NCBI GenBank assembly: GCA_041906305.1 | Contig: JAYRJL010000009.1 | Location: 102,927 to 166,926, forward strand | Source of the DNA: Alphaproteobacteria bacterium | GTDB lineage: Bacteria > Pseudomonadota > Alphaproteobacteria > SHVZ01 | DNA length: 64,000 nt | Direction of reading: 5' to 3' | Shown: in pieces, positions 1 to 52,080 of the stretch | How positions within the stretch are numbered: the first letter of the stretch is position 1 | Layout of the letters: the number at the start of each line of letters is the position of its first letter | Program-made: the position numbers and the translations under genes | The notes under the pieces: generated by a model | Seen by the model: the letters and a program-made list of their open reading frames with translations, nothing else | Databases searched by the model: none | Told to the model about the DNA's origin: nothing

Positions 1-441
1 CAATACGTGTTCTCCCGTCAGTTGCTGGATCTTGAACCGAGTCCGAATACGGGGAAGATCCCTGACCGCCTGGGCCTTGCTCACGCGCGTGCTGCATACG
101 GCGCAGATCGACATCAGGCGGAGCGTCGTCGGCGTTTCGATCGCGACGTCCGCAATGCCCAGATACGCCTCGCTGGGGCCTCGGCACTTGAAGCAATAGA
201 ACTGGTCGGGGGCGCACTTCGTGCGCCTCTTCGCCATCCGCGCCGAAAGGAATCGGGAGAGTTCGTCCCCGCGGATCAGGAAGGGTCGACTGCTGCGGTC
301 GGCGTGAAGACCTTCCTTGAGCCAGCGAAGCACGACGTTCTTGTGAAGCCCGAACAGGTCGGCGATCTCCTGGACCGTGTAAGGCCAGGTCGCCTTGATC
401 AGGCGAACATTGTAGGTGCGCTTGCGCGCCGGCCTATCCAC
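1..441 (-). CDS. Island protein with an HTH motif and a CxxC...CxxC zinc ribbon. It is 3'-partial because it runs off the window start. Likely start is GTG at 441.
   Basis: I translated the minus strand by hand. The frame is open from 441 to position 1 and reads VDRPARKRTYNVRLIKATWPYTVQEIADLFGLHKNVVLRWLKEGL...KCAPDQFYCFKCRGP...ICAVCSTRVSKAQAV. It is absent from the ORF track because there is no stop inside the window. It lies immediately downstream of alpA, in the same frame. Confidence 0.45.
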   Translation of the reverse strand, partial: MDRPARKRTYNVRLIKATWPYTVQEIADLFGLHKNVVLRWLKEGLHADRSSRPFLIRGDELSRFLSARMAKRRTKCAPDQFYCFKCRGPSEAYLGIADVAIETPTTLRLMSICAVCSTRVSKAQAVRDLPRIRTRFKIQQLTGEHVL

Positions 442-471
442 GATGAGTTGCTGCGCTACGTAGCAGCCAGG

Positions 472-687
472 CTAGGAAACCTTGCTGCGGCTGCGGCTGA
501 TCCTTTCCGCGATCCAGTCCTCGATCTCGCTCTGGAGCCACCCCACTGCCTTCGAGCCTAGGGAGATGGGCGGCGGGAAGGTGCCGTCCTTGACGCGCTG
601 GTAGATCGTCGAGCGCGAGAGTCCCGTGCGCGCTTCGACGGCCTTCCGCCGGATGATCGAGTGTGCGGGTTTGACGTCCTCGGCCAT
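472..687 (-). CDS. alpA: AlpA-family phage/island transcriptional regulator (DNA-binding, excisionase-like)
   Basis: 71 aa; MAEDVKPAHSIIRRKAVEARTGLSRSTIYQRVKDGTFPPPISLGSKAVGWLQSEIEDWI is the typical AlpA/MerR-like HTH signature; island context. Confidence 0.8.
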   Translation of the reverse strand: MAEDVKPAHSIIRRKAVEARTGLSRSTIYQRVKDGTFPPPISLGSKAVGWLQSEIEDWIAERISRSRSKVS

Positions 688-894
688 GTTTCGCCCCTGC
701 TAGCGTGCTCCGGACGTGACCGGAATGCCGATCCAGGTTGGCGCTTTGCCGAAAGGTTAATAGATGGGCGGGTTCCGAAAACCCTGCGCTGTTTCGGGCT
801 TCGAGACTGGAGGGTTTGAGCTTAGCGCCGCTGAGCCCGTTGCGGCCTCCGTCCAGAAACGCCGTGGTTTAAGGTGTTTGAGGGGGTGGGTGGG

Positions 895-1527
895 TTATCC
901 GCCAGGGGTCCTAGGGGCGCCCCCTTTGGTGTCCCAGTTGGCAATCTTGGCGATCTCCTCGATCCCTTGCTCGTTCGGATTGCCGTCGTCCTTCGTCAAC
1001 CCGAACTGATCAGCGTGCTTCCTGAGCCAGCGCAGCATCGCCTGCTTGACCGAGGTGCCGGTCGCTGACGCCAAGTCTGACGTGGTCGCCTGCCAAACAG
1101 CGATTGCAGCGGCCAACTTAGGGGCAAAGTTGGCGTTGCTGGGGTTAAGGTAACCGGGCGCGTCCGCCCCCTTTGGAAAAAAGAAGCCGGACGTGAAGCC
1201 GCGTGACGCCAGCCACTCGCGCAGCGATGCGACCTCGACGGTCGAGGCTACGGGATCCACGCCATCATCCAGTATGACGTGCAAATTCTGATCGGCGTCA
1301 TAACGGTGCTGACCCGTCTTGTTACCAACCTTGGTTCCCTTGATCACATCTGTCTTCAGCGCGTGTGAAATTCCGTTCTTCGCAGCTTCATAGCCCTGCG
1401 GACGGTTACCCAGAAACCAGTTTTCGCAGTCTCCCGCATTGCCTGAGGGATCTTCTCCGACAACTAGGAGGGCCGCCTGTACCACAGTGAGTTGATCGCA
1501 CAGCCGCCAATAATCCATCGGCTCCAT
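895..1527 (-). CDS. Hypothetical island cargo protein (210 aa), no recognisable domain
   Basis: Clean 210-aa ORF with non-repetitive, protein-like composition. Its ATG lies 1 nt after the integrase stop (TGAtATG), so it is probably co-transcribed with int. Confidence 0.5.
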   Translation of the reverse strand: MEPMDYWRLCDQLTVVQAALLVVGEDPSGNAGDCENWFLGNRPQGYEAAKNGISHALKTDVIKGTKVGNKTGQHRYDADQNLHVILDDGVDPVASTVEVASLREWLASRGFTSGFFFPKGADAPGYLNPSNANFAPKLAAAIAVWQATTSDLASATGTSVKQAMLRWLRKHADQFGLTKDDGNPNEQGIEEIAKIANWDTKGGAPRTPGG

Positions 1528-1528
1528 A

Positions 1529-2782
1529 TCAACTCGCCCTCTGGATAGGGACGATCTTTGCTCCCTCGCGCAACCGGTCGAGGTAGTCGGCCCACAACTG
1601 CATCATCTTCCGGCGTTCGGCGAGATGGGCCGTCCGGTTGTACGCACGTCCAAGCGGGTCCTGAACCGCGTGGGCAAGCTGATGCTCGATGAAGTCGGGC
1701 CTAACGTTAAGCACCTCATCGAGCACGGTCCGAGCCATAGCGCGGAAGCCGTGACCGGTCATTTCATCTTTTGCAATTCCCATCCGCCGGAGGGCGGCGA
1801 GTACGGCGTTGTTCGACATTGGCCGGCTGGCCGAGCGTGCAGAGGGAAAGACGTAGCGGCCCTGCCCCGTCAGAGGCTGAAGCTCGCGGAGGATTTCAAC
1901 CGACTGCTTCGAGAGAGGCACCAGGTGGGCCTGCCGCATCTTCATCTTGTCGGCGGGTATGGTCCATTCGGCGCGGTCAAGGTCGATATCCTGCCATTCG
2001 GCCGTGCGAAGCTCTCCGGGGCGGACGAAAACCAGAGGAGCGAAGCGCAACGCGCACTTGGTGACAAGTTGCCCGCTGTAGCCGTCGATCGCGCGGAGCA
2101 AACCGCCGATGGCCTTCGGGTCGGTCAGCGCCGCGAGGTGCGTCGAGCGGACTGGCGCCAGTGCGCCCCGAAGGTCGACGGAGAGATCACGCTCACAGCG
2201 TCCCGTCGCTATCGCATAGCGGAAGACCTGCCCGGATATCTGCCTCACCCTGTGCGCCGTATCCGTGGCCCCTCGACTTTCGATACGACGAAGCACCTTG
2301 AGAAGGTCGGGTGCCGCTAGATCGGCAATCGGACGCGATCCGAGCCAGGGAAACACATCTCGCTCCAACGCGCGCAGGTTCTTTTCGCTATGCGAGACGG
2401 TCCACTGCGCAGTGAATTTGCGGTGCCATTCTCGCGCGACAGCCTCAAAGCTGTTCTCGGCACGATCGGCCCTTGCTTTCCTTACGGCCTTGCGATGCGA
2501 GCTTGGATCAATGCCTTCGGCTAACAACTGGCGGGCCTTATCACGCCTCTCCCGCGCTCCATCGATCCAGGTGCCCGTCTCCTTGTCCTTGCGCCCAGCC
2601 AAAGGCACGTCGGGGTAGATCCCCAATGACAGGCGCTTTTCTTTGCCGTCGATCCGATACTTGAGGCGCCACCATTTGCCGCCGCTCGGAGCGACTTCGA
2701 GGTAAAGCCCGCCGCTATCAAACAGGCGTATCGGCTTGGCGCCGGGCTTGGCGCTGCGGATCGCAGCATCCGTCAAAGACAT
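1529..2782 (-). CDS. int: Tyrosine recombinase/integrase, P4-type (DUF4102 N-terminal domain plus phage integrase domain)
   Basis: N-terminus MSLTDAAIRSAKPGAKPIRLFDSGGLYLEVAPSGGKWWRLKYRIDGKEKRLSLGIYPDVPLAGRKD is the P4-like integrase arm-binding signature, and the C-terminus has catalytic-domain-like motifs (HGFRAMARTVL...HQLAH...AYNRTAHLAERRKMMQLWADYL). The track ORF (to 2980) has an Arg/Pro-rich upstream extension that runs into the tRNA. I trimmed it to the first M before the conserved N-terminus. Confidence 0.85.
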   Translation of the reverse strand: MSLTDAAIRSAKPGAKPIRLFDSGGLYLEVAPSGGKWWRLKYRIDGKEKRLSLGIYPDVPLAGRKDKETGTWIDGARERRDKARQLLAEGIDPSSHRKAVRKARADRAENSFEAVAREWHRKFTAQWTVSHSEKNLRALERDVFPWLGSRPIADLAAPDLLKVLRRIESRGATDTAHRVRQISGQVFRYAIATGRCERDLSVDLRGALAPVRSTHLAALTDPKAIGGLLRAIDGYSGQLVTKCALRFAPLVFVRPGELRTAEWQDIDLDRAEWTIPADKMKMRQAHLVPLSKQSVEILRELQPLTGQGRYVFPSARSASRPMSNNAVLAALRRMGIAKDEMTGHGFRAMARTVLDEVLNVRPDFIEHQLAHAVQDPLGRAYNRTAHLAERRKMMQLWADYLDRLREGAKIVPIQRAS

Positions 2783-2947
2783 CTGGGGGCAACTCCATCT
2801 GGAGTACACGACTATTCCCCAATGTTGCCCCCAGTTGCCCCCGGAACGCAATGGTCGAGCCTGGACTGCTTCGGAACCAAAATCACACACAAACCGGCAA
2901 ATCACCGACGTTAACCGGATCTGCGTGGAACATCTCGGATGGGGATT

Positions 2948-3022
2948 TGGTGGGCGATGACGGGATCGAACCGCCGACATCCTCGGTGTAAGCGAGGCGC
3001 TCTACCGCTGAGCTAATCGCCC
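2948..3022 (-). tRNA. tRNA-Val (anticodon TAC)
   Basis: Reverse complement reads GGGCGATTAGCTCAGCGGTAGAGCGCCTCGCTTACACCGAGGATGTCGGCGGTTCGATCCCGTCATCGCCCACCA. It is 75 nt with D-arm GCTCAGCGGTAGAGC, anticodon loop CTTACAC, T-arm GGTTCGATCC and a CCA end. Confidence 0.9.
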
Positions 3023-3056
3023 GAACTCGTTTCGGCCGCACCTTACCCAGAAATGC

Positions 3057-3090
3057 GAAGGCCGGCGACCCCTGGGGCGCACCGGCCTTC
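3057..3090 (-). terminator. Rho-independent terminator-like hairpin downstream of hupB
   Basis: gaaggccggcgacccctggggcgcaccggccttc has a 9-bp GC stem. On the minus strand it is followed by GCATTTCT. Confidence 0.45.
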
Positions 3091-3132
3091 GAAACTTTCG
3101 GGCGCCGCGCTTCGGCGGCGGAGGACGACGCT

Positions 3133-3405
3133 CTAGTTCAGAGCATCCTTGAGGCCCTTGCCGGCCTTGAACTTCGCGGAAGTCGAGGCGGGGATCTTGA
3201 TCTCCTCGCCGGTGCGCGGGTTGCGGCCGGTGGTCGCCGCACGCTTGGAGACGACGAAGGTGCCGAAGCCGACGAGGCGCACCTCGTCTCCGGCCTTGAG
3301 CGAAGCGGTGATGGAGTCGAAGACGGCGTCGACGGCCTTCGTCGCGTCCGTACGGCTCAATCCGCTGCTGTCGGCGACTGCCGCCACGAGATCGTTCTTG
3401 TTCAC
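3133..3405 (-). CDS. hupB: DNA-binding protein HU (beta)
   Basis: NKNDLVAAVADSSGLSRTDATKAVDAVFDSITASLKAGDEVRLVGFGTFVVSKRAATTGRNPRTGEEIKIPASTSAKFKAGKGLKDALN is canonical HU. I chose GTG at 3405 as the start (GGGGG lies 8 nt upstream). The alternative is ATG at 3420. Confidence 0.85.
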   Translation of the reverse strand: MNKNDLVAAVADSSGLSRTDATKAVDAVFDSITASLKAGDEVRLVGFGTFVVSKRAATTGRNPRTGEEIKIPASTSAKFKAGKGLKDALN

Positions 3406-3600
3406 TGCTTTGCCCCCCATTCCTCAGGAAGTTTGGCCTTCGTCGCTCACGCAAGGGTGACCGCGAAAGAGGCGCAATCTAGACAGCCATTTCAGCGCTC
3501 GTCAACGAGTAAAGCAGTGAAAAAACCGCTGTTTTCCGGGGGTTTCGACGTGATGCAGATCAACGACAAGCGAAGATTTCGACGCGACGCGAAGGCATCC

Positions 3601-3642
3601 CGCAAATGAAACGGGCCGGAGAGCGTTGTGCTCGTCCGGCCC
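3601..3642 (-). terminator. Rho-independent terminator of lon
   Basis: Stem gggccgga/tccggccc (3613-3620 and 3635-3642). On the minus strand it is followed by GTTTCATTTG, 23 nt downstream of the lon stop. Confidence 0.55.
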
Positions 3643-3664
3643 GTCGATAGTCGAGACGAAAGAC

Positions 3665-6076
3665 TCAGTGCGTGACGATACCGTCGCGCTGCTCTTCCTC
3701 GGTCGGCGCCGGACCGGGTTTGTCATCGCTCTCTTCCCACTTGATGGGCGTGAGAGTCTGCGTCAGCGCCTTCTTGAGAACCTCGTCCACGGTGGAGACC
3801 GCGATGATGTCGAGGTCCTTCTTCACGTTGTCCGGGATGTCCGCGAGATCCTTCTCGTTGTCCTTCGGGATCAGCACCGTCTTGAGGCCGCCGCGCAGCG
3901 CCGCCAGGAGCTTCTCCTTGAGGCCGCCGATCGGAAGCACCCGGCCGCGAAGCGTGACCTCGCCGGTCATCGCCACGTCGCGACGCACCGGAACGCCCGA
4001 GAGCACCGAGACGATCGTCGTCACCATCGCCACGCCGGCGGAAGGTCCGTCCTTCGGGGTCGCCCCCTCCGGCACGTGCACGTGGATGTCCTTCTTGGCG
4101 ATCAGCGTCGGCTTGATGCCGAACTCGGTCGCCCGGTTCTTCACGTAGCTCTCGGCCGCCTGGACCGACTCCTTCATGACGTCGCCGAGCTTGCCGGTGG
4201 CAATCACCTTGCCGCGGCCAGGAACGGTGACGGCCTCGATCGTCAGCAGCTCGCCGCCGACCTCGGTCCATGCCAAGCCGGTGACGACGCCGACCAGGTC
4301 GTCGGTCTCCGCCTCGCCGTAGCGGAAGCGGCGGACGCCGGCATACTTGTTGACGACCTTCGGCGTGACCTTGATCGCCTTCGCCTTGTCCTTCTCCTTG
4401 ACGATGTCCTTCACCGCCTTGCGCGCCAGGTTGGCGATCTCGCGCTCGAGGTTACGGACGCCCGCTTCGCGCGTGTAGTAGCGGATGAGCTCGCGGAGAG
4501 AGTCGTCGGAGACCGAGAACTCGCCCTTCTTGAGCCCATGCTCTTTCATCTGCTTCGGGATCAGGTGGCGCTTGGCGATCTCGACCTTCTCGTCCTCGGT
4601 GTAACCGGGGATGCGGATGATCTCCATGCGATCGAGCAGCGGCTGCGCCATGCGGAGCGTGTTCGCCGTGGTCACGAACATCACGTCCGAGAGGTCGTAG
4701 TCGACCTCCAGGTAGTGATCGGCGAACGTGCTGTTCTGCTCCGGATCCAATACCTCGAGGAGCGCGGACGCGGGATCGCCGCGCCAGTCGCTGCCCATCT
4801 TGTCGATCTCGTCCAGCAGGAAGAGCGGGTTCGAGGTCTTCGCCTTCTTCATGCCCTGGATGATCTTGCCGGGCATCGAGCCGATATAGGTGCGCCGATG
4901 GCCGCGGATCTCGGCCTCGTCACGCACGCCGCCCAGCGACATGCGCACGAAGCTCCGCCCGGTCGCCTTGGCGACCGACTTGCCGAGCGAGGTCTTGCCG
5001 ACGCCGGGAGGACCGACGAGGCAGAGGATCGGCCCCTTGACCTTGCCGACCCGCATCTGGACCGCGAGATATTCGAGGATGCGCTCCTTGACCTTCTCGA
5101 GACCGAAATGGTCGGTGTCGAGAACCTTCTCGGCGCCCTCGATGTCGCGCTTCACCTTCGAGCGCTGCTTCCACGGGATCGACAGCATCCAGTCGAGGTA
5201 GTTGCGGACGACCGTCGCCTCGGCCGACATCGGACTCATCGTGCGGAGCTTCTTCACTTCCGCCAGCGCCCGCTCGCGCGCTTCCTTCGACAGCTTGGTC
5301 TTGTTGATGCGCTCCTCGAGCTCGGCCGCCTCGTCGCGGCCCTCCTCGTTCTCGCCCAGCTCCTTCTGGATCGCCTTCAGCTGTTCGTTCAGGTAGTACT
5401 CGCGCTGCGTCTTCTCCATCTGCCGCTTGACGCGGTTGCGGATGCGCTTCTCGACCTGAAGGACGCCGATCTCGCTCTCCATGAACGCGTAGACGCGCTC
5501 GAGCCGCTCGGAGATCGTCGGGACCTCGAGCAAGGCCTGCTTGTCGGAGATCTTGATGTTGAGATGCTGGGCGACGGTGTCGGCCAGCTTGCCGATGTCC
5601 TCGATCTGGTTGATCGACACCAGGACCTCGGGCGGGATCTTCTTGTTGAGCTTGATGTACTGCTCGAACTGCGAGACCACGGCGCGCGAAAGCGCCTGCA
5701 GCTCCTGGCCCTGGCCCTCGACGTCGGGCAGGACGTCGGCCTCGGCCTGGAAGAATTCGTCATTGTCGGTGTAGCGGAGCACGCGCGCGCGCTTCACGCC
5801 CTCGACCAGCACCTTCACGGTGTTGTCGGGCAGGCGGAGGAGCTGCAGGACCGTGCCGACGGTGCCGACCTTGTAGATGTCGTCGGTCGACGGATCGTCC
5901 TGGGCCGCGTTCTTCTGCGTCACGAGAAGGATCTGCTTGTCGTCCTTCATGACGTCTTCGAGCGCGCGCACCGATTTCTCGCGCCCGACGAACAGCGGAA
6001 CGATCATGTGGGGGAAAACGACGATGTCCCGGAGGGGGAGGACCGGGAAGAGGCTGACAGAAGAGGATTCTGACAT
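3665..6076 (-). CDS. lon: ATP-dependent Lon protease
   Basis: 803 aa. N-terminal [26 protein letters not shown], Walker [14 protein letters not shown] and the protease domain [17 protein letters not shown] are all Lon hallmarks. Confidence 0.95.
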
Positions 6077-6134
6077 GGTGCTCGCTTTCTATAGAAGCCG
6101 GGCCAGGGCTCGAACAACGCAACCGCTGGACCCG

Positions 6135-6170
6135 CTTAGAGATTCAAATGGCCGACCGTCCCTCCCCTTT
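6135..6170 (-). promoter_or_regulatory. Possible RpoH (sigma-32)-type heat-shock promoter upstream of lon
   Basis: On the minus strand: TTGAAA (reverse complement of 6164-6169), a 16-nt spacer, then GGCCATTTGA (reverse complement of 6135-6144), about 59 nt upstream of the lon ATG. It resembles CTTGAAA-N16-CCCCATNT. Eyeball match only. Confidence 0.25.
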
Positions 6171-6214
6171 CAACCTCTTGAACTTAGGCGCTCGTGGCCT
6201 ATTGGTTCCCCCGT

Positions 6215-7480
6215 TCAAGCCGAGGTCGGCGCGGCGTCGCGCGGGCGCTCGGAATGGACGTAGAGCGGCTTCGAACCGACATCGACCACGTCCTTGCCGA
6301 TGACGATGCGCTCGACGTCCGAGAGACCGGGAAGGTCGAACATCGGATCGAGCAGGATGCCTTCCATGATCGAGCGGAGCCCGCGGGCGCCGGTCTTGCG
6401 CTGAAGCGCCTTGCGCGAGATCGCGCGGAGCGCGTCCTCCTGGAAGTCGAGGCGCACGTCCTCCATCTCGAACAGCCGCTGGTACTGCTTCACCAGCGCG
6501 TTCTTCGGCTTGGACAGGATGTCCATCAGCGCCGCTTCGTCGAGGTCCTCGAGCGTCGCCACGACCGGCAGGCGGCCGATGAACTCCGGGATCAGGCCGA
6601 ACTTCAGCAGATCCTCGGGCTCGACTTCCTTGAGCACGTCGCCGGTGCGGCGCTCCTCGGGGCTGCGGACGTCGGCGCCGAAGCCGACCGAGGTGCCCTT
6701 CTGGCGCATCGAGATGATCTTCTCGAGGCCGGCGAAGGCGCCGCCGCAGATGAAGAGGATGTTGGTGGTGTCGACCTGCAGGAACTCCTGCTGCGGATGC
6801 TTGCGGCCGCCCTGCGGGGGCACCGAGGCGACGGTGCCTTCCATGATCTTCAGCAACGCCTGCTGCACGCCCTCGCCCGACACGTCGCGGGTGATCGAGG
6901 GGTTGTCGGACTTGCGGCTGATCTTGTCGACCTCGTCGATGTAGACGATGCCGCGCTGCGCGCGCTCGACGTTGTAGTCGGCGGCCTGCAGCAGCTTGAG
7001 GATGATGTTTTCGACATCTTCGCCGACATAGCCGGCCTCGGTCAGCGTCGTCGCGTCCGCCATCGTGAACGGCACGTCGATGATGCGGGCCAGCGTCTGG
7101 GCCAGCAGCGTCTTGCCGCAGCCGGTCGGGCCGACCAGCAGGATGTTCGACTTCGCGAGCTCGACGTCGCTCGACTTCTGGCCGTGGGCGAGACGCTTGT
7201 AGTGGTTATGGACCGCGACCGAGAGCACGCGCTTGGCGTGCTGCTGGCCGATCACGTAGTCGTCCAGCACCTTGCAGATGTCGCGCGGGCTCGGCACGCC
7301 GTCGCGCGACTTCACCAGCGTGGTCTTGTGTTCCTCGCGGATGATGTCCATGCAGAGTTCGACGCATTCATCGCAGATGAATACGGTCGGCCCGGCGATG
7401 AGCTTTCGGACCTCGTGCTGGCTCTTTCCGCAGAACGAGCAGTAGAGGGTATTCTTGGAGTCGCCGCCGGACTTGCTCAT
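6215..7480 (-). CDS. clpX: ATP-dependent Clp protease ATP-binding subunit ClpX
   Basis: Zinc-finger N-terminus [43 protein letters not shown] and Walker [13 protein letters not shown] chose the second ATG (7480) because AGGA lies 5 nt upstream. Confidence 0.95.
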
Positions 7481-7651
7481 GGCCATCCTCGAAACGCCGC
7501 CCACAAGGCCCGAAGGGGCCGGGAACGGGGACTAATCAGCATGTTACAGGCCGCCGCAACCGGGGCACAACCCGGAAAAGACCGCCGAACCTACGCCATT
7601 TAATGCAAGAAACGCGCCTTTCAAGGCGCGTTTCTTCGGCGAATCGGTGGT

Positions 7652-8299
7652 TCAGCTCTTGGCCTTGGCCGCGTCGTCAGGACCCGGGCGGTGGGTCATG
7701 ACCTGATCGATCAGGCCGAATTCCTTGGCCTCGTCCGGCGACATGAAGCGGTCGCGCTCGACCGCCTTCTCGATCGCCTCCAGCGACTGGCCGGTGTGCT
7801 TGACGTAGATCTGGTTAAGGCGCGCACGGGTATTAAGGATTTCGCGTGCCTGAATCTCGATGTCGGTCGCCTGGCCCTGGGCGCCGCCGGACGGCTGGTG
7901 GACCATGATGCGGGCGTTCGGAAGGGCATACCGCTTGCCCTTGGCGCCGGCGCACAGCAGGAACGAGCCCATCGAGGCCGCCTGCCCGATGCAGACCGTC
8001 GAGATCTCGGGCCGGACGTACTGCATGGTGTCGTACATCGCGAGGCCGGAGGTCACGACGCCGCCCGGCGAGTTGATGTAGAGCGAGATGTCCTTGGTCG
8101 GATTCTCCGACTCGAGGAACAGCAGCTGGGCGCAGACGAGGCTCGCCATGCCGTCATGGACAGGCCCGGCGATGAAGATGATCCGCTCCTTGAGCAGGCG
8201 CGAGTAGATGTCGAAGGCGCGCTCGCCGCGCGGGGTCTGCTCGACCACCATCGGCACGAGCGTGGAATTCCAGATCTCGATCGGGTCGCGGTCTCGCAT
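7652..8299 (-). CDS. clpP: ATP-dependent Clp protease proteolytic subunit ClpP
   Basis: [34 protein letters not shown]...[13 protein letters not shown] is the ClpP catalytic Ser/His context; conserved tig-clpP-clpX-lon order. Confidence 0.95.
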
Positions 8300-8368
8300 G
8301 GTTCCTCGAACGGGCGGCCTAGGGAAAAGGCCGCCCTGACAGGCTGGTGGGGACTGGTCAGCGCTAGC

Positions 8369-9676
8369 TTAGTCGGTGGGGAGACCTTCGTCCCTGATCA
8401 ACTCGGCAGCGCTGACCGTGCGGTCGGTCACCTTCGCCACCTCGAGGATGAAGTCGATGACCTTGTCCTCATATAAGGGTGCGCGGAGCTGAACCAAGGC
8501 CTCCGGGGTCTTCTGGTAGAACTCGATGACTTCGCGCTCGCGACCCGGATAGCGCGACGCCTCCGCGGCGAGCGCCCGGCGCAATTCCTCTTCGCCGACC
8601 TGGATATTGTTCCTGCGCCCGATTTCCGAGAGCAGAAGCCCCAGGCGCACGCGACGCTCGGCGATGCCCTTGTACTCGTCCTTCTCGGAATCGGTCGGCT
8701 CCTTGTTGCCGCCGTTCTGCGCCACCTGCTGGAGGATGTTGTTGTACTCGCTCTCGAGCAGGTTCTTCGGCGCCGGGAAGCTGTGCTTCTCGGCCAGCGC
8801 GTCGAGCAGCTTGCGCTTCAGCTTCGAGCGGGAGACCTGGGCGTGCTGGCGCTCGAGACGCTCGCGTCCGGCCTTCCGGAGCGCGTCGACCGTGTCGAGG
8901 CCGACCTTCTTCGCCAGCGCGTCGTCGACCGCCGCCGGCGCACCCGAGCGCACCTCCTTGACGGTCACGCTGAAGACCGCCGCCTTGCCGGCGACGTCGG
9001 TGAAGACGTAGTCGGCCGGGAAGGTCACGTTGACCTCGCGGGTATCGCCCGCCTTGGCGCCGACCAGCTGATCCTCGAAGCCCGGGATGAAGGTCTCGGA
9101 TCCGAGCTCGAGCGGCACGTCGGTGCCGCTGCCGCCATCGAACACCTTGCCGTCGATCTTGCCCTCGAAGTCGACCGAGACGACGTCGCCCTTCTCGGCG
9201 GCGCGCGGCGGGTTCACCGGCTGGACCTCGCGCATGCGGCGCGCGAGACGCATCAGGTCGTCTTCGACGTCCTTGTCCGAGACCTCGGCCTTGAGGCGCT
9301 CGAGCGAGATGGTCGAGAAGTCGGCCGGGACGATTTCCGGCATCAGGTCGACGGTCAGCTCGTATTCGAGATCCTTGCCCTGATCGAACGACTTGACCTC
9401 GATCTTGGGCGAACCGGCCGTCTTGAGCCCCTTGTCGTTGACCGCGGTCGCCGAGGACTGGCGTACCGTCTCGTCCAACACCTCGCCCATGACCGACTGG
9501 CCGTAGCGCTTGCGCACCAGCTCCAGCGGCACCTTGCCCGGGCGGAAGCCCGGCAGCCGGACGGTGCCGGCGAGCTCGGTCAGCTTGCGCGTGACCTGCT
9601 CATCGACCTCGGCAGCGGGGACGACGATCTTGAAGGTCCGGGTCAGGCCCTCGGAAAAGGTCTCGGTGACGTTCAT
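8369..9676 (-). CDS. tig: Trigger factor
   Basis: MNVTETFSEGLTRTFKIVVPAAEVDE... matches the ribosome-binding N-domain signature, followed by a PPIase domain and a C-domain. It lies immediately upstream of clpP. Confidence 0.9.
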   Translation of the reverse strand: MNVTETFSEGLTRTFKIVVPAAEVDEQVTRKLTELAGTVRLPGFRPGKVPLELVRKRYGQSVMGEVLDETVRQSSATAVNDKGLKTAGSPKIEVKSFDQGKDLEYELTVDLMPEIVPADFSTISLERLKAEVSDKDVEDDLMRLARRMREVQPVNPPRAAEKGDVVSVDFEGKIDGKVFDGGSGTDVPLELGSETFIPGFEDQLVGAKAGDTREVNVTFPADYVFTDVAGKAAVFSVTVKEVRSGAPAAVDDALAKKVGLDTVDALRKAGRERLERQHAQVSRSKLKRKLLDALAEKHSFPAPKNLLESEYNNILQQVAQNGGNKEPTDSEKDEYKGIAERRVRLGLLLSEIGRRNNIQVGEEELRRALAAEASRYPGREREVIEFYQKTPEALVQLRAPLYEDKVIDFILEVAKVTDRTVSAAELIRDEGLPTD

Positions 9677-9741
9677 TGGCGGCGCGCTTTTTTCCGTTGA
9701 ATGGACGACAGGCGGGCGATGGGCCGAAGCTCACGCGTGGC

Positions 9742-9826
<85 letters not shown>

Positions 9827-9887
9827 CAAAACCCTTTGCAGCAGGCGGATTTGGGGCAACCCGCCGCAGCCAAGGGGGGGTCTCATA

Positions 9888-11375
9888 TCATACGCCCTCG
9901 ACGCCGTCGATGGCCCATCCGGACGGCATTTCGCGAAGAGCGCGAAGGACCCCGGGCAAGCGCTCGGGCAGGTCCTCAGCGACCAGCCCGGGGCCGAAAC
10001 CGGCCGCCGCCCGGGCATGCAGCCAGACTCCGGCGGACGCGGCCTCGAACGGCGCCATTCCCTGCGCCAGAAGGCCGAGGATGAGGCCGGCCAGCACGTC
10101 GCCGGACCCCGCGGTCGCCAGCTCCGGCGGGGCGCCGGCAGCCAGGGCGGCGCGCCCATCCGGGGCGGCCACCACCGTATCCGGCCCCTTGAGGACGACG
10201 ACGGCAGAGGCACGCTCGGCGGCAGCGCGGGCGGCGGCGAGCCTCCCTCCCTCGCCGACCGGGCCGAAAACCCGGGCGAACTCGCCTTCGTGTGGGGTCA
10301 GGACCGGCCAGGGCCTCTCCGGACGGCCCAGGGATTCAGCCTCTCCGTCCAGGGCGTCGGCGTCGAGAACCAGCCTCCGGCCCGACGCGATCGCCTCGGC
10401 CACGGCCTTGAGGGTGGCCTCGCCGCGCCCGTTGCCGGGACCCACGAGCACCGCGTTGCGCCGCTCGTCCGCCAGGGCCGGAACGAAGTCCGCGGCCCCC
10501 ACCCGCTGCACCAAGGTGCCGGGCTGGTCGGCCGCGTAGATCGCCGCCGCCTCGGGCGGGGCGGCGATCGTGACGAGCCCGGCGCCGGCCCGGCGGGCGG
10601 CGCGCGCGGCAAGCCTGGCTGCCCCGGTCATCTCGGCGCCGCCGCGGATCACCGCATGACCGCGCCGGTACTTGTGGGCGTCGGCGTCGACCCAGGGGAA
10701 CGCCCCCCGCCAGAGGCCAGGTCCATTGACCCAGGTCTTGGGACCGATCTCCGCCAGCACGGCGGCGGGCAGGCCGATGTCCGCCAGCAGCAGGGTCCCG
10801 CAGAGACCGCGACCGGGATACAGCAGGTGGCCCGGCTTGAGCCGAAAGAAGGTGACGGTCAGGGCCGCCCTCGCCGCCGCACCGCGGACACGGCCGCTGT
10901 CGCCATCGAGGCCGCTCGGCACGTCGACCGCGACCACCGGGACGTCGCGCCGCGCCAGCCGCTCGATGGTGGCCTTCGCTGCGCCTTCCAGCGGTCGCGC
11001 CAGCCCGGCGCCGAACAGCGCGTCGACCACGAGTTCGGCGTCATCGACGCATTCCGGCGTCAGCGTATCCACCGATCCGGTCCAGCGCTTTCGCCAGATC
11101 AGCGCGTCGCCGCCTCCCGGCTCCGCCAGGGCGGCGACCCGCACCGGCCACCCTTCTCGGGCCAGCGTCTGCGCGACGACGTAGCCGTCGCCCCCGTTGT
11201 TGCCCGGACCGCAGAGTACCGTCGTCGGCCTGGGCGCCCACCGGCGTCTGATCGCGCCGGCGACGGCCTCGCCTGCCCGCGCCATGAGGCGCTCGCCGGG
11301 TTGCCCTAGCGAGGCGGCAAGGGCATCCGCCCTCGCCATCTCGGCATTGGTCAGGAGTGCGTGGGCGTCGCTCAA
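9888..11375 (-). CDS. nnr: Bifunctional NAD(P)H-hydrate repair enzyme Nnr (epimerase plus ADP-dependent dehydratase; YjeF family)
   Basis: N-terminal YjeF-N region (VLCGPGNNGGDGYVVA) and C-terminal carbohydrate-kinase-like dehydratase region (VLTPHEGEFARVFG...GSGDVLAGLI). Confidence 0.85.
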   Translation of the reverse strand: MSDAHALLTNAEMARADALAASLGQPGERLMARAGEAVAGAIRRRWAPRPTTVLCGPGNNGGDGYVVAQTLAREGWPVRVAALAEPGGGDALIWRKRWTGSVDTLTPECVDDAELVVDALFGAGLARPLEGAAKATIERLARRDVPVVAVDVPSGLDGDSGRVRGAAARAALTVTFFRLKPGHLLYPGRGLCGTLLLADIGLPAAVLAEIGPKTWVNGPGLWRGAFPWVDADAHKYRRGHAVIRGGAEMTGAARLAARAARRAGAGLVTIAAPPEAAAIYAADQPGTLVQRVGAADFVPALADERRNAVLVGPGNGRGEATLKAVAEAIASGRRLVLDADALDGEAESLGRPERPWPVLTPHEGEFARVFGPVGEGGRLAAARAAAERASAVVVLKGPDTVVAAPDGRAALAAGAPPELATAGSGDVLAGLILGLLAQGMAPFEAASAGVWLHARAAAGFGPGLVAEDLPERLPGVLRALREMPSGWAIDGVEGV

Positions 11376-12424
11376 GGCGCGAGAACGACGCGTCCGACGA
11401 TGCGCCCGGCCTTCAGGTCTTCGAGCGCCTGGTTGACCTCGTCGAGCTTGCGGCGACCGACGGGCATCGGCTTGACCTTGCCGGCGCGGACGAGTGCCAT
11501 CAGCTCGCGCATCTCGCCCAGGGTTCCGACGTAGGAGCCGCGGATCGTCATCGCGCGCATGGGCAGCGTCACCAGCGGCAGCGTCACGTCGCCGCCGAAC
11601 AGGCCGACGATGACGTACGTGCCCCCCTTGTTGAGCGCATCGATGCCGAGACGCGCGGTCGCCGAGGCGCCGACGAAGTCGACGGCGGCGGCGAGCCTCC
11701 CGCCGGCAAGATCCTTGAGGCGCTTCGCCGCATCAGGACCGGAAGAGTTGAGCGTCTTCGTGATGCCCATCTTCTTCGCCGCTTCGAGCTTGGCGTCGTC
11801 GATGTCGACCGCGATGATCGGCGCGTCGATCATGCCGGGCGCGATCGCGACGCCGGCGAGGCCGACGCCGCCGAGCCCGATCAGCGCGACATGATCGCCG
11901 GCGATCAGCTTCGGAATTTTCTTCAGCGCGCCATAGGCGGTGACGCCAGAGCACGCGTAGGTCGCGGCGAGCCCGGGGTCGACCCCGGTGATGTCGACGA
12001 GATACTTTTCGTCGGGAACCAGCACGTGATCCGAATAGCCGCCATGGCTGAACACGCCGAGCGAGCGCATCTGCAGGCAGAGATTCTCCTCGCCGGCCAG
12101 GCACGGGGCGCACTTCCCGCAGCCGATCCACGGAAATGCCATCCGCATGTCGCCGACCTTGGCGGTCTTGGCCTCCGGGCCGACCGCGACGACCTCGCCG
12201 ACGACCTCGTGGCCCATGGTCAGCGGCAGGTTGATGCCGCGATCGCCGAGGGTCAGGCGCTTGCCGCCGCCGAGATCGTAGTAGCCGTCCCAGATGTGAA
12301 GGTCGCTGTGGCAGACGCCGGCCGCGACTGTCTTGAGCAGGACCTGGCGCCCGGTCGGCGCAGGCGTCTCATGCGCGACCCGTGCGAGCGGCTTCGAGAA
12401 TTCGGTGACCTGGTAGCTGAGCAT
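11372..12424 (-). CDS. Zinc-dependent alcohol dehydrogenase (MDR family)
   Basis: GVCHSDLHIWDG...GHEVVGEVVAVG...CGKCAPCLAGEENLC are the catalytic and structural Zn motifs. GLGGVGLAGV is the NAD-binding motif. Its stop overlaps the nnr start in an ATGA quartet. Confidence 0.85.
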   Translation of the reverse strand: MLSYQVTEFSKPLARVAHETPAPTGRQVLLKTVAAGVCHSDLHIWDGYYDLGGGKRLTLGDRGINLPLTMGHEVVGEVVAVGPEAKTAKVGDMRMAFPWIGCGKCAPCLAGEENLCLQMRSLGVFSHGGYSDHVLVPDEKYLVDITGVDPGLAATYACSGVTAYGALKKIPKLIAGDHVALIGLGGVGLAGVAIAPGMIDAPIIAVDIDDAKLEAAKKMGITKTLNSSGPDAAKRLKDLAGGRLAAAVDFVGASATARLGIDALNKGGTYVIVGLFGGDVTLPLVTLPMRAMTIRGSYVGTLGEMRELMALVRAGKVKPMPVGRRKLDEVNQALEDLKAGRIVGRVVLAP

Positions 12425-12483
12425 CGTTCCTCCGGCTTTTGCCGGAGCCTACAAGCCCCTACTGGTGGCGCGCCATCGACTTA

Positions 12484-12987
12484 TCGCTGGATGGCCGGGT
12501 TGGTCGGCGTACCGGCCGCCGGCCGGTTCTTGACGCTCTCGTCGGTCTTCCAGCCCTTGTAGGCATCCTCGATCACCGAGCGGTAGGGGCTGTAGTCCAT
12601 CGGCAGCGCGCCCTGCTTCTTCTGCTCGTCGCCCTTGGCGAAGCGATAGACCTCGCACGCCCCGGTCTTGTCGCGGAAGAAGAAGTAGGACGTGTCGGCC
12701 TTCGACTTCACCTTCGGATCGTAGAGATTGTACTGGTTGGTGGCGACGCCGAGGATCGCCGGCCCGATCGAGCCGTTGAACACCACCTTCAGCTTGCCCG
12801 GCTGCAGCTGGTTGAAGTTGCCGCGGGCGCACTCGGTCGAGAGGTCCTGGTCCAGCGCGCCGACTTCCCAATAAGGATGCGGGCTGGTGGTGAGGATACG
12901 CCCGCCCCCCTGCTGGGCATGCGCGCTCGTCACGCTTCCGAGAATCAGCAGGCCGGCGAGCCGGAGGCCACGGTTCATGCCATGCAT
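12484..12987 (-). CDS. Hypothetical secreted protein (168 aa with a signal peptide)
   Basis: This is the C-terminal part of the 923-aa track ORF. Only this part is protein-like (MNRGLRLAGLLILGSVTSAHAQQ is signal-peptide-like, then a mixed composition). The upstream 750 aa are an Arg/Pro artefact. The start could be 12987 or 12978. Confidence 0.5.
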
Positions 12988-13001
12988 ATGGCGCGAGTCG
13001 C

Positions 13002-13904
13002 TCAGCCTGACAAGCCTGCGGCCGCCAGCGGCTCCTTCAGGAACGCGCGCATGGGCGCCTCCATCCGGAAGCGGCGCTGGGCATCGATCCCGAACCCGAC
13101 CGCATCCCCCTTGAGAAGCTCGTCGATCGCGTCGGCGAGGTCGGCGTAAGGTGCCGCCCGGCAATACGAGAACAGGTAGCGCAGGTCGCCCGTATCGAAA
13201 TGCTCGGCCGCGACCGCGACCCCGGCGTGGAGTCCGGCGACGATCCGGCTCGGCGAGTTGAACCGCACCCATTCCGCCCGGCGGACGTCGACGATCAGCT
13301 TGGTCCGCTTCAGCATGTCGAGGCGAATGTAGTCGGGCATCACGCCGAGGGTCGATCGAACGTTCCAGCCGCGCCGGCTCAGGTCCTCCATGATCGCGGT
13401 GCGCCTCGGCACGGTGAGCCCGTAGATCAGGACGTCGATGTCCTGGCCGCCGGGCCGCCGCTTCTCGGCCAAGGCATGCACGTACCCGAAACGCAGGAAG
13501 GCGACCTTCCTCGGATCGGGCACGAAGCGCGCATAGTCCGTTATCGGTACGAGCGACCAGACGAAGTCCGCGACCTCGAGCATGCGCAGAAGATGCTCGC
13601 GCCGGTCGGGAAACGACGGGTTGTCCATGACCGAGGGATCGCCGATGTCCTCGGTGACCAGCAAGCCCAGGGGGAAGTCGTTGCCGAGCATCCGCTTGCG
13701 CTCGATCACGCCGTCGACGAAGGCGCGGTCGGGGAAGAACTCGATCAGGAGGTTCACGACGGGGCGGTTGTACAGGAAGCCGTTCTCGTACTGGACCGAA
13801 TGGCCGGCCTCGGCGAGGCCGGCGGCCAACGGCTGAAGGATATCGCCGATGGTGACCAGGCTGCCGTGCGGATGGTTCTGCAGGTAGATGCTGAACTTCG
13901 CCAT
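13002..13904 (-). CDS. Conserved hypothetical protein (300 aa, cytoplasmic), tightly linked downstream of ppx
   Basis: Clean ORF with balanced composition. It starts 3 nt after the ppx stop and ends 14 nt before the next gene. I recognise no domain. Confidence 0.55.
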   Translation of the reverse strand: MAKFSIYLQNHPHGSLVTIGDILQPLAAGLAEAGHSVQYENGFLYNRPVVNLLIEFFPDRAFVDGVIERKRMLGNDFPLGLLVTEDIGDPSVMDNPSFPDRREHLLRMLEVADFVWSLVPITDYARFVPDPRKVAFLRFGYVHALAEKRRPGGQDIDVLIYGLTVPRRTAIMEDLSRRGWNVRSTLGVMPDYIRLDMLKRTKLIVDVRRAEWVRFNSPSRIVAGLHAGVAVAAEHFDTGDLRYLFSYCRAAPYADLADAIDELLKGDAVGFGIDAQRRFRMEAPMRAFLKEPLAAAGLSG

Positions 13905-13907
13905 CGC

Positions 13908-15389
13908 CTACTTGATCTTTCCGACGTTCTTCAGCGCGTCGGAAAGCGCCTCCAAGCGACGGCCGACGACGTCGCCGGCGAGCCTGCGGCGCTCGCCGCG
14001 GAAGGTCAGTGACAGGTTGCGGCGCTCGGTCCCGAGCCGGACGTCGGCCAGTGCGCGCGAGTCGCCGCCGGCGAGCGTGTAGCCGAGCCTGAGCGCGAGA
14101 CCCAGCGTCAGTGCCGCCTCGGCGTCTCCGGGCGCCAGCAGGCGGCGGACCGAGATCAGCAGATCGGCCTCGATATGACCGTGGTAGCGGACATGGACGG
14201 TGAGCGCGAGGAGCGCCCGCTCGCGATGCTCGATCGCAACCACGGGCAGGTGGAGGATTCGCCAGAACGCGTGCTCGGCGCGGTAGTCGGGATGGTCCTG
14301 CCAGCCGATGTCGCCGAGCAGGACAGCGGCTCGGACCAGGCGGGCGGGAAAGCCCGGCGGCACCACGGGCGCGAGCCAGCCGACGATCGCCTCGACGTCG
14401 GGCGCGAAGCGCGCCTGGCGCACCGCGAGATCGCCGGCATAGGCCAGGAGCGGATCCTGGTCGCGGACCGCGGGCGACAGCTTCTCGAACAGGCAACCTT
14501 CGCGAAGGCCGTAGGAAGAGAACACCAGCCGCCGGGGCTTGCCGACGCGCACGACCTCGTCGAGGGGAAGCGCCGACCAGAGAAGCGCGTCGACGCGGCG
14601 CGTGACGCCGGGAATGCGCTTCAGCTGCGCCTTGCTGAGTCTCGGCAGGCGACCGAGGAAGGGGCGAGCGGCCCGGGCTTCGATCGCATAGGCATGGATC
14701 ACCTTGAGCGGATAGTCGGTGAGCGCCATGTGCACGCGCGCCAGGGCCCGCCACGAACCTCCGACGAGATAGAGATCCCTCCCGGCGAGACGGTCGAGCC
14801 AGGGAATGCTTTTCAGATGCGCGGCGACGACCGCCCTCGCCCGCTTGAGATTGCCGCCCGAAAGCTCGGTCAGCGCCAACGGCCCCAGAGGCAGCGTAAC
14901 CTGCTTGCGGATGCGCCCGCGGGCGATGTCGACGAGTTCGAGGCTGGCGCCGCCGAGATCGCCCACGACTCCGTCCGCATCGGGATTGCCCGAGAGAACG
15001 CCGAGCGCCGACGTCCGCGCCTCGTCCTCGCCCGACAGGATCTCGAGCCGGATGCCGGTCCGCCGCCGGACCTCCGCGACGAAAGCCGGACCGTTCCCCG
15101 CCTCGCGCACGGCGGCGGTCGCGACCGCGGTCATGCGCGCGACGCCCATTGCCTTGGCGACGCTGGCGAAGCGGGAGAGATTGCGGTGCGCGTCGGCCAT
15201 CGCGCTTTCGTCGAGCATCCCGGTCGTGGCGACGCCGCGGCCGAGACCGCACAGGACCTTCTCGTTGAAGACCGGCACCGGCGCACGCCCGTCGTGCTCG
15301 AACACCACGAGGCGGATCGAGTTGGATCCGACGTCGAGAACGCCGACCGGCTTCGGCCGTCGTCCCCGCTCCGCTTTGCCTGACTTCAC
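13908..15389 (-). CDS. ppx: Exopolyphosphatase (Ppx/GppA family)
   Basis: [17 protein letters not shown]...[17 protein letters not shown]...[10 protein letters not shown] are the Ppx/GppA ASKHA motifs. The GTG start at 15389 overlaps the ppk stop (GTGA). The track ORF 13908..17456 is the same frame extended into ppk. Confidence 0.85.
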
Positions 15390-17533: not shown

Positions 17534-17636
17534 GACGGCACCAAGACGTAGTTTTCCCAGCCCCTTAGCTATAACACGGCCGGCGTGACGAAGTCATGTC
17601 GCCGGCCGTGAGAAGGCTGTGGCCGAAGGCCGGGGC

Positions 17637-18680: not shown

Positions 18681-18690
18681 GAAGTGAACC

Positions 18691-19467
18691 TCAGATGGAG
18701 CTGTTGAAGGCGCCGCCGTCCATTAGCAGGTTCTGGCCGGTGATGTAGCCGGCATGCGCGCTGCAGAGAAACGCGCAGGCCGCACCGAACTCCTCGGCCG
18801 TGCCGAAGCGCTTCGACGGATTCTGCTGCGAGCGCTCCTTGACGATGTCGGCGAGCGGACGGCCGGTCTTCTTCGCCTCGAACTCCATGCCGGAGCGGAG
18901 CCGATCGGTATCGAACGGTCCCGGCAGCAAACCGTTGATCGTGACGCCGTCCCTGGCCACCTGACGCGCGATGCCGGCGCAGAAGCCCGTCAGGCCCGTG
19001 CGCGCGCCATTGGAAAGGCCGAGCACCGGGATCGGCGACTTAACCGAGCCCGAGGTGATGTTGACGATGCGGCCCCATTTGCGCGCGATCATCGGGTCGA
19101 GCGTCGCCTTGATCAGCTCGATCGCGGTGATCATGTTGGCGTTCAGCGCCTTCATCCAATCGTCCGGCGTCCACTCGCGGAAGTCGCCGGGGGGCGGGCC
19201 GCCGGCATTGTTGATCAGGATGTCCGGATCCCTGCAGGCGGCGAGCGCGGCGGCGCGGCCCTCGGGCGTGGTGATGTCGCCGGCGACGGTCGTGACCTTG
19301 CCGCCGGATGCCCGGATCTCGTCTGCGGTCTTCTCGAGCACCTCCTTGCCGCGCGCGGTGATCGTGACCAGCACGCCTTCGCGCGCCAGCGCCTGGGCGC
19401 AACCCCTGCCCAGCCCCTTCGATCCGGCGCAGACCAGCGCACGACGTCCGGCAATGCCCATGTCCAT
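18691..19467 (-). CDS. SDR family oxidoreductase
   Basis: GRRALVCAGSKGLGRGCAQALAREG and NNAG are the Rossmann and active-site motifs. Only the C-terminal 258 aa of the track ORF are real. The start has a GAGGAG RBS 8 nt upstream. Confidence 0.85.
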   Translation of the reverse strand: MDMGIAGRRALVCAGSKGLGRGCAQALAREGVLVTITARGKEVLEKTADEIRASGGKVTTVAGDITTPEGRAAALAACRDPDILINNAGGPPPGDFREWTPDDWMKALNANMITAIELIKATLDPMIARKWGRIVNITSGSVKSPIPVLGLSNGARTGLTGFCAGIARQVARDGVTINGLLPGPFDTDRLRSGMEFEAKKTGRPLADIVKERSQQNPSKRFGTAEEFGAACAFLCSAHAGYITGQNLLMDGGAFNSSI

Positions 19468-20150: not shown

Positions 20151-20163
20151 TGTCTCAGGCCGG

Positions 20164-21240: not shown

Positions 21241-21241
21241 G

Positions 21242-22908: not shown

Positions 22909-22974
22909 TGCAAAGCGTCCACGTTCGTCTATGTTTCTGGCGCCCGCTTATACCGTGGCGAGCGCGAGGACACC

Positions 22975-24671: not shown

Positions 24672-24730
24672 AAAATCGGACGGTCCTGCGCTATACGCGA
24701 ACGACCGGTTTCGGGAGGGAGAATTCAGAC

Positions 24731-52073: not shown

Positions 52074-52080
52074 GTTTTCA

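Follow-up and report, generated by a model that had tools for sequence, protein, structure and literature searches.

A tRNA-Val-integrated island with an integrase, p210 and AlpA backbone and defence cargo in an uncultured alphaproteobacterium

The DNA analysed here (the window) is a stretch of 64,000 nucleotides (nt), positions 102,927 to 166,926 of contig JAYRJL010000009.1 in assembly GCA_041906305.1, from an alphaproteobacterium of the GTDB lineage SHVZ01. Its positions 1..2961 very probably represent the tRNA-proximal end of a 20,528-bp integrative island, which carries defence cargo on a backbone of five genes, namely the integrase gene int417, a gene for a protein of 210 amino acids (aa) (p210), alpA, hth166, which encodes a helix-turn-helix (HTH) protein, and int372, which encodes a second tyrosine recombinase. 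The island is located at the 3' end of a tRNA-Val(TAC) gene, between hupB and a GT41/TPR gene, and its G+C content is 59.1%, against 67.7% for the core. It is well supported that this is an ordinary tRNA-integrated island of the integrase-plus-AlpA type with defence functions, of which the backbone family and one cargo module are unstudied. In the window, the end of the island and its target comprise the following features:

2948..3022, minus strand: tRNA-Val(TAC) gene, intact, the integration target (ARAGORN; Rfam RF00005, 68.8 bits)
2927..2961, minus strand: attL core GTCATCGCCCACCAAATCCCCATCCGAGATGTTCC, made up of 14 nt from the tRNA 3' end and the next 21 nt (blastn break against empty-site loci; both ends and attB read)
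2893..2909, minus strand: terminator-like hairpin just inside the island, 3' of the tRNA (consensus match)
2785..2842: three copies of GGGGGCAAC immediately before the integrase ATG, of which those at 2834..2842 and 2824..2832 (minus strand) are direct and that at 2785..2793 is inverted
1529..2782, minus strand: int417, P4-type tyrosine integrase, 417 aa from a conserved MSLTD start (Pfam, NCBIfam, PHROGs)
895..1527, minus strand: p210, 210-aa backbone protein, with stop and start 1 nt apart at its junction with the integrase gene (...agt TGA t ATG gag...)
688..894, minus strand: p210-alpA intergenic region, 207 nt, partly conserved with a sister island
472..687, minus strand: alpA, small HTH protein of the AlpA family, 71 aa (PF05930)
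1..441, minus strand: hth166, HTH_17 plus a four-cysteine zinc ribbon, first 147 of 166 codons, GTG start at 441 (Pfam, NCBIfam)

An initial annotation of these lines, made from the letters alone, had described an integrase with a DUF4102 arm and a catalytic domain at 165 nt from the 3' end of tRNA-Val(TAC), a 210-aa protein with no assignable domain linked to it by TGAtATG, and, after a gap of about 200 nt, alpA followed by an HTH/zinc-ribbon gene. This gene order was recovered in full, by ARAGORN and Pfam for the tRNA and the integrase, by the lack of any library match for the protein encoded at 895..1527 on the minus strand, by a gap of 207 nt, and by PF05930, HTH_17 and the paired CxxC motifs for the two last genes. 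The same annotation had proposed a genomic-island boundary at tRNA-Val, with the tRNA 3' end repeated at the other border, and had suggested a comparison with the closest genomes; both proposals were borne out: a repeat of 34/35 nt was found leftwards, 20.5 kb away, on an identical public contig, and the site is empty in relatives with 98-99% identity in the flanks.

The part of the island beyond the window was read from this public contig, the 24,835-bp Logan contig SRR26835456_102511 (L098, hereafter the record), which was found via a look-up of the 210-aa protein and is 100% identical to window 1..3175, so that record position x is 3176-x in the numbering of the window; the remainder of the contig was reached by exact-sequence look-ups of the downstream proteins. 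No att repeat was found within the first 12.7 kb of this extension. Further on, attR is present at record 20743-20776, to the left of the window, and forms with attL (record 215-249) a direct repeat of 34 and 35 nt, with one 1-nt gap and 4 mismatches between the two. The final 14 nt of tRNA-Val(TAC) belong to attL, and attR reads GTCATCGCC-ACCAAACCTCCAGCCGAGACGTTCC.

Seven island-free loci (L088 to L094) were found in other samples by a look-up of the identical HU protein. At the empty sites, tRNA-Val is followed directly by the GT41/TPR gene, L091 having a TPR gene and a beta-lactamase gene in this place; next come aminotransferase and PhyH genes, as in the island contig. The empty-site gene order is also seen in L090, L093 and L094. 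Locus L088 (GCA_964482145.1) matches record 1-249 and record 20743-24835, and these two matches overlap by 35 nt on L088 (10460-10494), which gives the attB sequence as GTCATCGCCCACCAAACCTCCATCCGGGACGTTCC. Flank identity reaches 98.4% over 10.5 kb of core in L088, about 99% in L089 and L092, and 94.6% in L091, and in each of these four loci homology to the window ends at 2927 (blastn). The data contradict both of the observations that would speak against an island, namely that no att repeat exists and that the genes are core in all relatives.

Comparison of the three sites also bears on the position of the crossover. Indeed, attL is identical to attB through position 16 and differs from it at positions 17, 19 and 30; attR has a foreign 1-nt gap at position 10 and matches attB at positions 17, 19 and 30. 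Because of this mismatch pattern, strand exchange is placed within ACCAAA (positions 11-16; window 2946..2951), at the CCA end of tRNA-Val, as the probable crossover. The attP junction is predicted to read ...TTTGAGCGG-GTCATCGCC(C)ACCAAA[T/C]C[C/T]CCA...GTTCC-ACGCAGATCCGG, and the predicted empty attB junction consists of the tRNA 3' end followed by GGGCACGTCTGATGC.

Some observations concern the surroundings of this site. The hairpin at 2893..2909 may terminate transcription of the tRNA. About 40 nt located 3' of tRNA-Val are similar between island-bearing and empty sites. What lies between tRNA-Val and the aminotransferase and PhyH genes varies even where the island is absent, the interval being occupied by GT41/TPR (L088:10474-12267), by a TPR gene and a beta-lactamase-family gene (L091:928-3845) or by TspO (L084:20688-21186), and the site downstream of tRNA-Val looks like a recombination hotspot. 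The tRNA was the sole match of the Rfam scan, and the promoter scan gave no match.

The backbone is shared by a large family of elements. A genome scan with p210 recovered 80 loci in Alpha-, Beta- and Gammaproteobacteria, Acidobacteriota, Nitrospirota, Bdellovibrionota and other groups; after a first pass by tblastn, synteny was established by profile searches of 78 of these 80 loci. An alpA-like gene lies downstream of p210 in 61/76 loci, a P4-type integrase is encoded directly upstream of p210 in 33/66 and anywhere within 10 kb in 57/78, and the hth166 and int372 pair is present in 28/65. Among the 33 loci with the integrase directly upstream, 24 have a tRNA gene within 600 nt, and 13 tRNA species are represented. 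Furthermore, 14 additional islands, of 4.7-13.5 kb and located at 12 different tRNA genes, could be delimited by repeats of 15-60 nt of the tRNA 3' end; all 14 encode the integrase and p210, and eight encode int372. The smallest (4.7 kb), in a Pseudomonas metagenome-assembled genome, consists of int, p210, alpA and two unknown open reading frames (ORFs). In some islands (e.g. L008) the integrase gene is found at the opposite end, on the other strand, and the excised circle would still place it next to p210.

On this comparison, int, p210, alpA, hth166 and int372 constitute the conserved backbone of an element family targeting many tRNA genes, and the genes beyond int372 are swappable cargo. 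The initial annotation had spoken of uncharacterised cargo at this end of the island; the 210-aa protein, alpA and the HTH/zinc-ribbon gene are not cargo and belong to the backbone seen in the related loci.

The integrase int417 shows the three domains Arm-DNA-bind_3 (PF13356, formerly DUF4102; 3.2e-23), Phage_int_M (3.6e-38) and Phage_integrase (3.9e-17), and its catalytic residues R254, K281, H344, R347, H371 and Y381 are kept in 36-38 of 38 homologues. Its ATG is located 165 nt from the 3' end of tRNA-Val and transcription is directed away from the tRNA. With 252.8 bits against NCBIfam PRK09692, the CP4-57-type integrase model, it does not reach the cut-off of 434; by its domains, it is a member of the P4-type integrase family and not an orthologue of PRK09692. 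The alpA product matches PF05930 (6.9e-22; 77.5 bits against a gathering score of 21) as well as excisionase and regulator families of PHROGs, and by analogy with CP4-57, VPI-2 and SGI1-type islands it is likely to act as excision directionality factor and activator. Pairwise identities of int417 and alpA co-vary across loci (Spearman rho 0.48). The region between p210 and alpA (688..894) probably holds an alpA promoter or operator. Its overall identity with the sister island is 77%, with several conserved blocks, including a TTCCGG-N5-TCCGGAG sequence just upstream of the alpA ribosome-binding site, which is a possible operator.

Short repeats mark both ends of the island. The 24.8-kb contig contains five copies of the motif GGGGGCAAS, three of them within 60 nt upstream of the integrase start and two about 100 nt inside attR; the island has no others. 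The three copies near the integrase in L098 compare with 0.39 expected, and three were reached in 0/200 shuffles. The sister island carries the same motif at both of its ends. By their place and enrichment, the GGGGGCAAC repeats are candidate arm-type integrase sites and/or an operator of int. Likewise, TGGGGGCA-like words are found just inside both ends of family islands that target different tRNAs (L017, L038, L069, L051 and the island of the record itself), which suggests a conserved recognition motif for a backbone protein, either the arm domain of the integrase or p210.

The p210 gene is translationally coupled to int417 (TGAtATG). The profile and structure searches that had been proposed for this protein were run and gave no match. 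In brief, neither the single sequence nor any of the 30 alignment members matched Pfam, NCBIfam, PHROGs or PADLOC; a p210 profile gave nothing below E 0.68 against PDB sequences; Foldseek searches of PDB and BFVD with the full and N-terminal models gave best E-values of 0.13-0.6 and TM-scores below 0.3, with weak winged-helix matches only; and no match was found in 50,697 phage records, nor any meaningful PHROG match. Sub-threshold matches to DUF4224, SAP and Slx4 (helix-extension-helix) recur around residues 148-172. In the AlphaFold model, a confidently predicted alpha/beta domain at the N-terminus is followed by a C-terminal domain of helices and by a tail that is disordered but conserved (ANW..GGAPKTPG); the mean confidence (pLDDT) is 78.5 over the whole protein and 84.8 when the N-terminal domain is modelled by itself. 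Relatives are numerous (more than 1,289 in a 90%-clustered collection; in a 50%-clustered library, 1,625 representative clusters at E<=1e-3 and 1,151 at E<=1e-10), the best match among GTDB representatives shares 53% identity, and no domain fusion was seen among the best 150 relatives, all of which are stand-alone proteins of roughly 150-320 aa.

Because of its size, its place by the att site and the integrase, its presence in minimal islands and the sub-threshold and winged-helix hints, p210 most likely serves the backbone as a small DNA-binding protein, either an accessory factor or a regulator, a role to which we give an even chance. An expanded AlpA/Xis winged helix at the N-terminus was considered and is not supported (hhalign probability below 3%), this being a weak test, since alpA against hth166 itself reaches only 5.7%. 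In the 787-kb plasmid of Ruegeria conchae (NZ_CP081104.1; L103:6028-9918), the backbone order recurs, with an arm-type integrase followed by AlpA, an HTH protein and a site-specific integrase, but p210 is replaced by two short hypothetical ORFs of 141 and 157 aa, and one more integrase gene lies upstream in divergent orientation. Proteins that are not homologous to each other may therefore occupy the position after the integrase.

The last two backbone genes form a pair. The hth166 product matches HTH_17 (2.8e-06) and the TIGR01764 excisionase family, followed by a CxxC...CxxC arrangement whose four cysteines are invariant in 31 homologues, and the hth166 stop overlaps the int372 start outside the window (record 2735-3235 and 3219-4337). 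The int372 product is a 372-aa Xer-like tyrosine recombinase that keeps R173, K202, H290, R293, H319 and Y329, and its residues 20-337 align to XerC, XerD and XerA models, so that the core-binding region is present. The pair appears to be a second, catalytically intact recombination module of the Xis-like/Xer-like type. Across loci, the Spearman correlation of pairwise identities, a crude measure confounded by phylogeny, is 0.76 for hth166 and int372, 0.43 for p210 and hth166, 0.28 for p210 and int372, and 0.04 for p210 and int417. These correlations point to two interleaved modules, one composed of int417 and alpA and the other of p210, hth166 and int372.

The pair could be an ordinary second Xis/Int-type module to which p210 is unrelated, serving a second integration specificity, the resolution of tandems or multimers, or the inversion of cargo. 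This explanation, which we regard as possible and somewhat unlikely, agrees with the excisionase-family HTH (TIGR01764/HTH_17) of hth166, with a gene overlap as in xis-int pairs, with the full catalytic set and Xer-like architecture of int372 and with the fact that cargo begins directly 3' of int372, on the same strand, in most family islands. However, no delimited island is built on int372 alone, the P4-type integrase being encoded in all 14 as well, no target site could be found for int372, the cassettes in which the two sister islands differ are not adjacent to it, and a multimer resolvase has no obvious use in a non-replicating island. A bolder and more doubtful proposal is that p210, hth166 and int372 form an unrecognised functional module of tRNA-targeting islands, either a new tyrosine-recombinase-based mobilisation system that processes an origin of transfer (oriT) or a cargo-exchange system, p210 being the founder of a new family of DNA-binding fold. 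If true, the cargo-exchange version would explain the rapid cassette turnover directly downstream of this module. Integron-like capture beside int372 was set aside; the cassette differences of the sister island are not adjacent to int372.

The insertion of the island may be pictured as follows. Through recombination, the P4-type integrase would have joined an attP carried by the element to the 3' end of tRNA-Val, and strand exchange in ACCAAA at the CCA end would let the island copy restore an intact tRNA. The arm-binding domain of the integrase probably reads the GGGGGCAAC repeats lying only just inside both ends, and AlpA would be the likely excision directionality factor and activator. Because no recognisable transfer machinery is encoded, movement between cells would need a helper (a conjugative element or a phage) or transformation; Pfam scans of all island proteins revealed no relaxase, coupling-protein or mating-pore domains.

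Several points weigh against this scheme. The GGGGGCAAS count of the attR copies, taken alone, was equalled in 16/200 shuffles, and the assignment of the GGGGGCAAC repeats as arm sites uses position and enrichment only. The gap and 4 mismatches of attR relative to attL could lower activity, and, as regards excision, the predicted attP junction had no exact match among JGI metagenome contigs. The role of AlpA is assigned from that of its family, no homologue with a known function or fold could be detected for p210 (whose putative DNA binding derives from sub-threshold DUF4224- and SAP-like and weak winged-helix matches), and no transfer function was identified among the island proteins.

The 1-nt deletion and 4 mismatches of attR and the lack of a circular junction in JGI contigs would also suit a fixed, decaying remnant that has lost its mobility. 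We consider this improbable, since all backbone ORFs are intact with their catalytic residues kept, strains that share 98-99% identity in the flanks differ in whether they carry the island, cassettes were recently exchanged in the sister island, and tyrosine-recombinase islands normally have imperfect att repeats (PMC10484663).

As to transfer, an integrase and AlpA next to a tRNA are also the front end of P4-like satellites and of Gram-negative phage-inducible chromosomal islands (PICIs), and islands with Int and AlpA at tmRNA are transduced by a jumbo phage (PMC12595487). That the island is such a phage satellite, induced and packaged by a helper phage, nevertheless seems very unlikely, since its 17 genes gave no match to a primase/replicase, to Psu, Delta or Sid, to capsid-remodelling proteins or to a small terminase (Pfam, PHROG), and p210 is without counterpart in the phage records and PHROGs mentioned above. 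Passive transduction of the island is possible. By gene content, the island is neither a P4-like satellite nor a PICI, being without replication and packaging genes, and neither an integrative and conjugative element nor a canonical integrative mobilisable element, being without a relaxase and a type IV secretion system.

A different kind of mobilisable element could be envisaged, in which int372, aided by hth166 and p210, would be a tyrosine-recombinase-like relaxase of the MOB_M class (as are MpsA of SGI1, MobK and TcpM) that nicks an oriT of the island, the excised circle then being transferred by a co-resident conjugative element. Such relaxases are reported to be the commonest type of relaxase in chromosomal islands, are usually annotated as integrases and in 96% of cases adjoin an integrase (bioRxiv 10.64898/2026.01.13.699239; PMC6414798); in the same direction, no other transfer gene is present on the island, hth166 and int372 co-vary (rho 0.76), and p210 tracks these two (0.43, 0.28) and not the integrase (0.04). 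However, known MOB_M relaxases consist of the catalytic domain only, without arm- and core-binding domains (PMC8152469), unlike int372, which has a core-binding domain. Moreover, int372 has no match to a MobM-family NCBIfam model, its profile comparison with TcpM (hhalign, E 0.38) is at chance level and is outscored by the P4-type integrase (E 0.004), and the hth166-int372 pair is optional, int372 being encoded in 8/14 delimited islands. We therefore regard a relaxase function of int372 as quite unlikely and retain the reading of a tRNA-integrated island in need of a helper or of transformation.

The true cargo lies wholly outside the window. In the numbering of the record, the island and its borders are composed of:

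154-228: tRNA-Val
394-1647: int417
1649-2281: p210
2489-2704: alpA
2735-3235: hth166
3219-4337: int372, second tyrosine recombinase
4435-5268: NUDIX gene (weak PDC-S07 match)
5622-9766: three-gene module p386, p347 and Hsp70-like gene
9847-10791, minus strand of the record: p314
10943-13396: hsdR (PADLOC REase_I, 1.9e-274)
13397-14647: PDDEXK_4 gene, PD-(D/E)xK, between hsdR and hsdM (PADLOC candidate PDC-S26, 1.1e-165)
14651-16108: hsdM (PADLOC MTase_I, 6.6e-213)
16105-17736: hsdS (PADLOC Specificity_I, 1.3e-103)
17834-19066: p410
19050-19421: p123
19517-20629: EcsC-like gene (weaker PDC-S29 match, 3.8e-12)
from 20903, outside the island: GT41/TPR gene, then aminotransferase and PhyH genes, both on the minus strand

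A complete type I restriction-modification (R-M) system is encoded, with HsdR, HsdM and HsdS in one locus and Pfam domains in agreement with PADLOC; besides the genes with matches listed above, the cargo includes some whose products have none. The initial annotation had remarked that islands of this architecture often carry defence or virulence genes; the cargo here turns out to be largely recognisable defence genes. A sister island (L084, an ENA contig with 83% nucleotide identity) occupies the same tRNA-Val and carries the same backbone, the NUDIX gene, p314, hsdRMS and the EcsC-like gene. It differs by three cassette changes: the Hsp70 module is absent, an unrelated gene encoding 246 aa lies between hsdR and hsdM, and a PLD-nuclease cassette replaces p410 and p123. 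In 19 family islands, the cargo adjoining int372 includes four type I and four type III R-M systems. Small islands of the family carry non-defence genes, namely an FGE-sulfatase, an RDD or an outer-membrane protein (OMP) gene.

The Hsp70-like module (L098:5622-9766) lies about 2.4-6.6 kb to the left of window position 1 and has no match in PADLOC v2. Its first product, p386, has a C2H2 zinc-finger-like N-terminus; the second, p347, is probably a coiled-coil protein and shows weak LmuB/HmpF-like matches only; the third is a 647-aa Hsp70-like ATPase with a cysteine-rich C-terminus and more than 3,000 relatives. The same three-gene operon (35%, 25% and 52% identity) is encoded directly upstream of BrxA-BrxB-BrxC-PglX in Bradyrhizobium canariense (L100), adjoins BREX-like genes in a JGI contig, and in Ruegeria lacuscaerulensis (L101) is located between DUF1156/DUF499-HEPN genes and an OLD-like gene. 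Its position beside BREX and further defence genes in genomes that are not related, together with its absence from PADLOC v2, makes it a candidate for an uncharacterised defence system. A literature search found no paper describing this operon.

Elsewhere in the window, the core genes hupB, lon, clpX and clpP are encoded to the right of tRNA-Val. The G+C content departs from the remainder at 10001-11000 (76.7%), just past tRNA-Leu(tag) at 9742-9826, and at 52001-53000 (62.2%) and 56001-57000 (58.6%); the two latter dips could mark other acquired segments.

In summary, tRNA-integrated islands with an integrase, AlpA and restriction systems are common, and the island itself is routine. Its value is that of a cleanly delimited example (attL, attR, attB and a probable crossover) from an uncultured high-GC lineage, with a sister island that shows turnover of defence cassettes. 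The p210 backbone is widespread, with about 1,150 clusters at 50% identity (E<=1e-10) in Proteobacteria, Acidobacteriota, Nitrospirota and Bdellovibrionota, and its genes are obvious candidates for explaining how islands without transfer genes move between cells. The Hsp70-like operon is of interest as a candidate defence system that is carried as cargo here and also occurs beside BREX in unrelated genomes.

Among known systems, P4-like satellites and Gram-negative PICIs resemble the island in their P4-family integrase, AlpA and tRNA-adjacent location, whereas the island has no primase/replicase, capsid-size or packaging genes and its p210 is absent from phage databases. SGI1 and related MGI elements with MpsA and MpsB (PMC6414798) are similar in that the integrase gene is terminal, that Xis is AlpA-like and that a further protein of the tyrosine-recombinase family is encoded with a small DNA-binding partner. 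However, SGI1 integrates in trmE and not in a tRNA gene, its mpsB follows mpsA and encodes a SAM-like core-binding fragment, whereas here an excisionase-type HTH-zinc-ribbon gene precedes a full-length Xer-like protein, and the traG/N/H and rep genes of SGI1 are absent from the island. Phage defence elements (Hussain et al. 2021, cited in PMC12595487) and the defence-island hotspots of E. coli (PMC10121019) share with it a small integrative element, R-M and defence genes in a variable region and fast cassette turnover among close relatives; the host there is Vibrio or E. coli and here an uncultured high-GC bacterium, the backbone family differs, and some members of the present family are without defence genes.

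The closest likeness in organisation is with CP4-57 (at ssrA of E. coli), VPI-2, the Yersinia high-pathogenicity island (HPI) and the Pseudomonas tmRNA islands with IntY and AlpA (PMC12595487). In the Pseudomonas tmRNA islands, alpA is located at the far end and YqaJ, RadC and Gp2-like genes, absent here, are common (PMC12595487). All of these islands nevertheless agree with the present one in an integrase next to the 3' end of a tRNA or tmRNA and reading away from it, in direct repeats that include the tRNA 3' end, in a small HTH protein of the AlpA family, in the lack of self-transfer machinery, in accessory and often defence cargo, and in presence or absence among close strains. None of them is known to carry a pair of an HTH-zinc-ribbon protein and a Xer-like recombinase. 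The backbone described here differs from theirs by an additional conserved protein, p210, coupled to the integrase, and often by this very pair.

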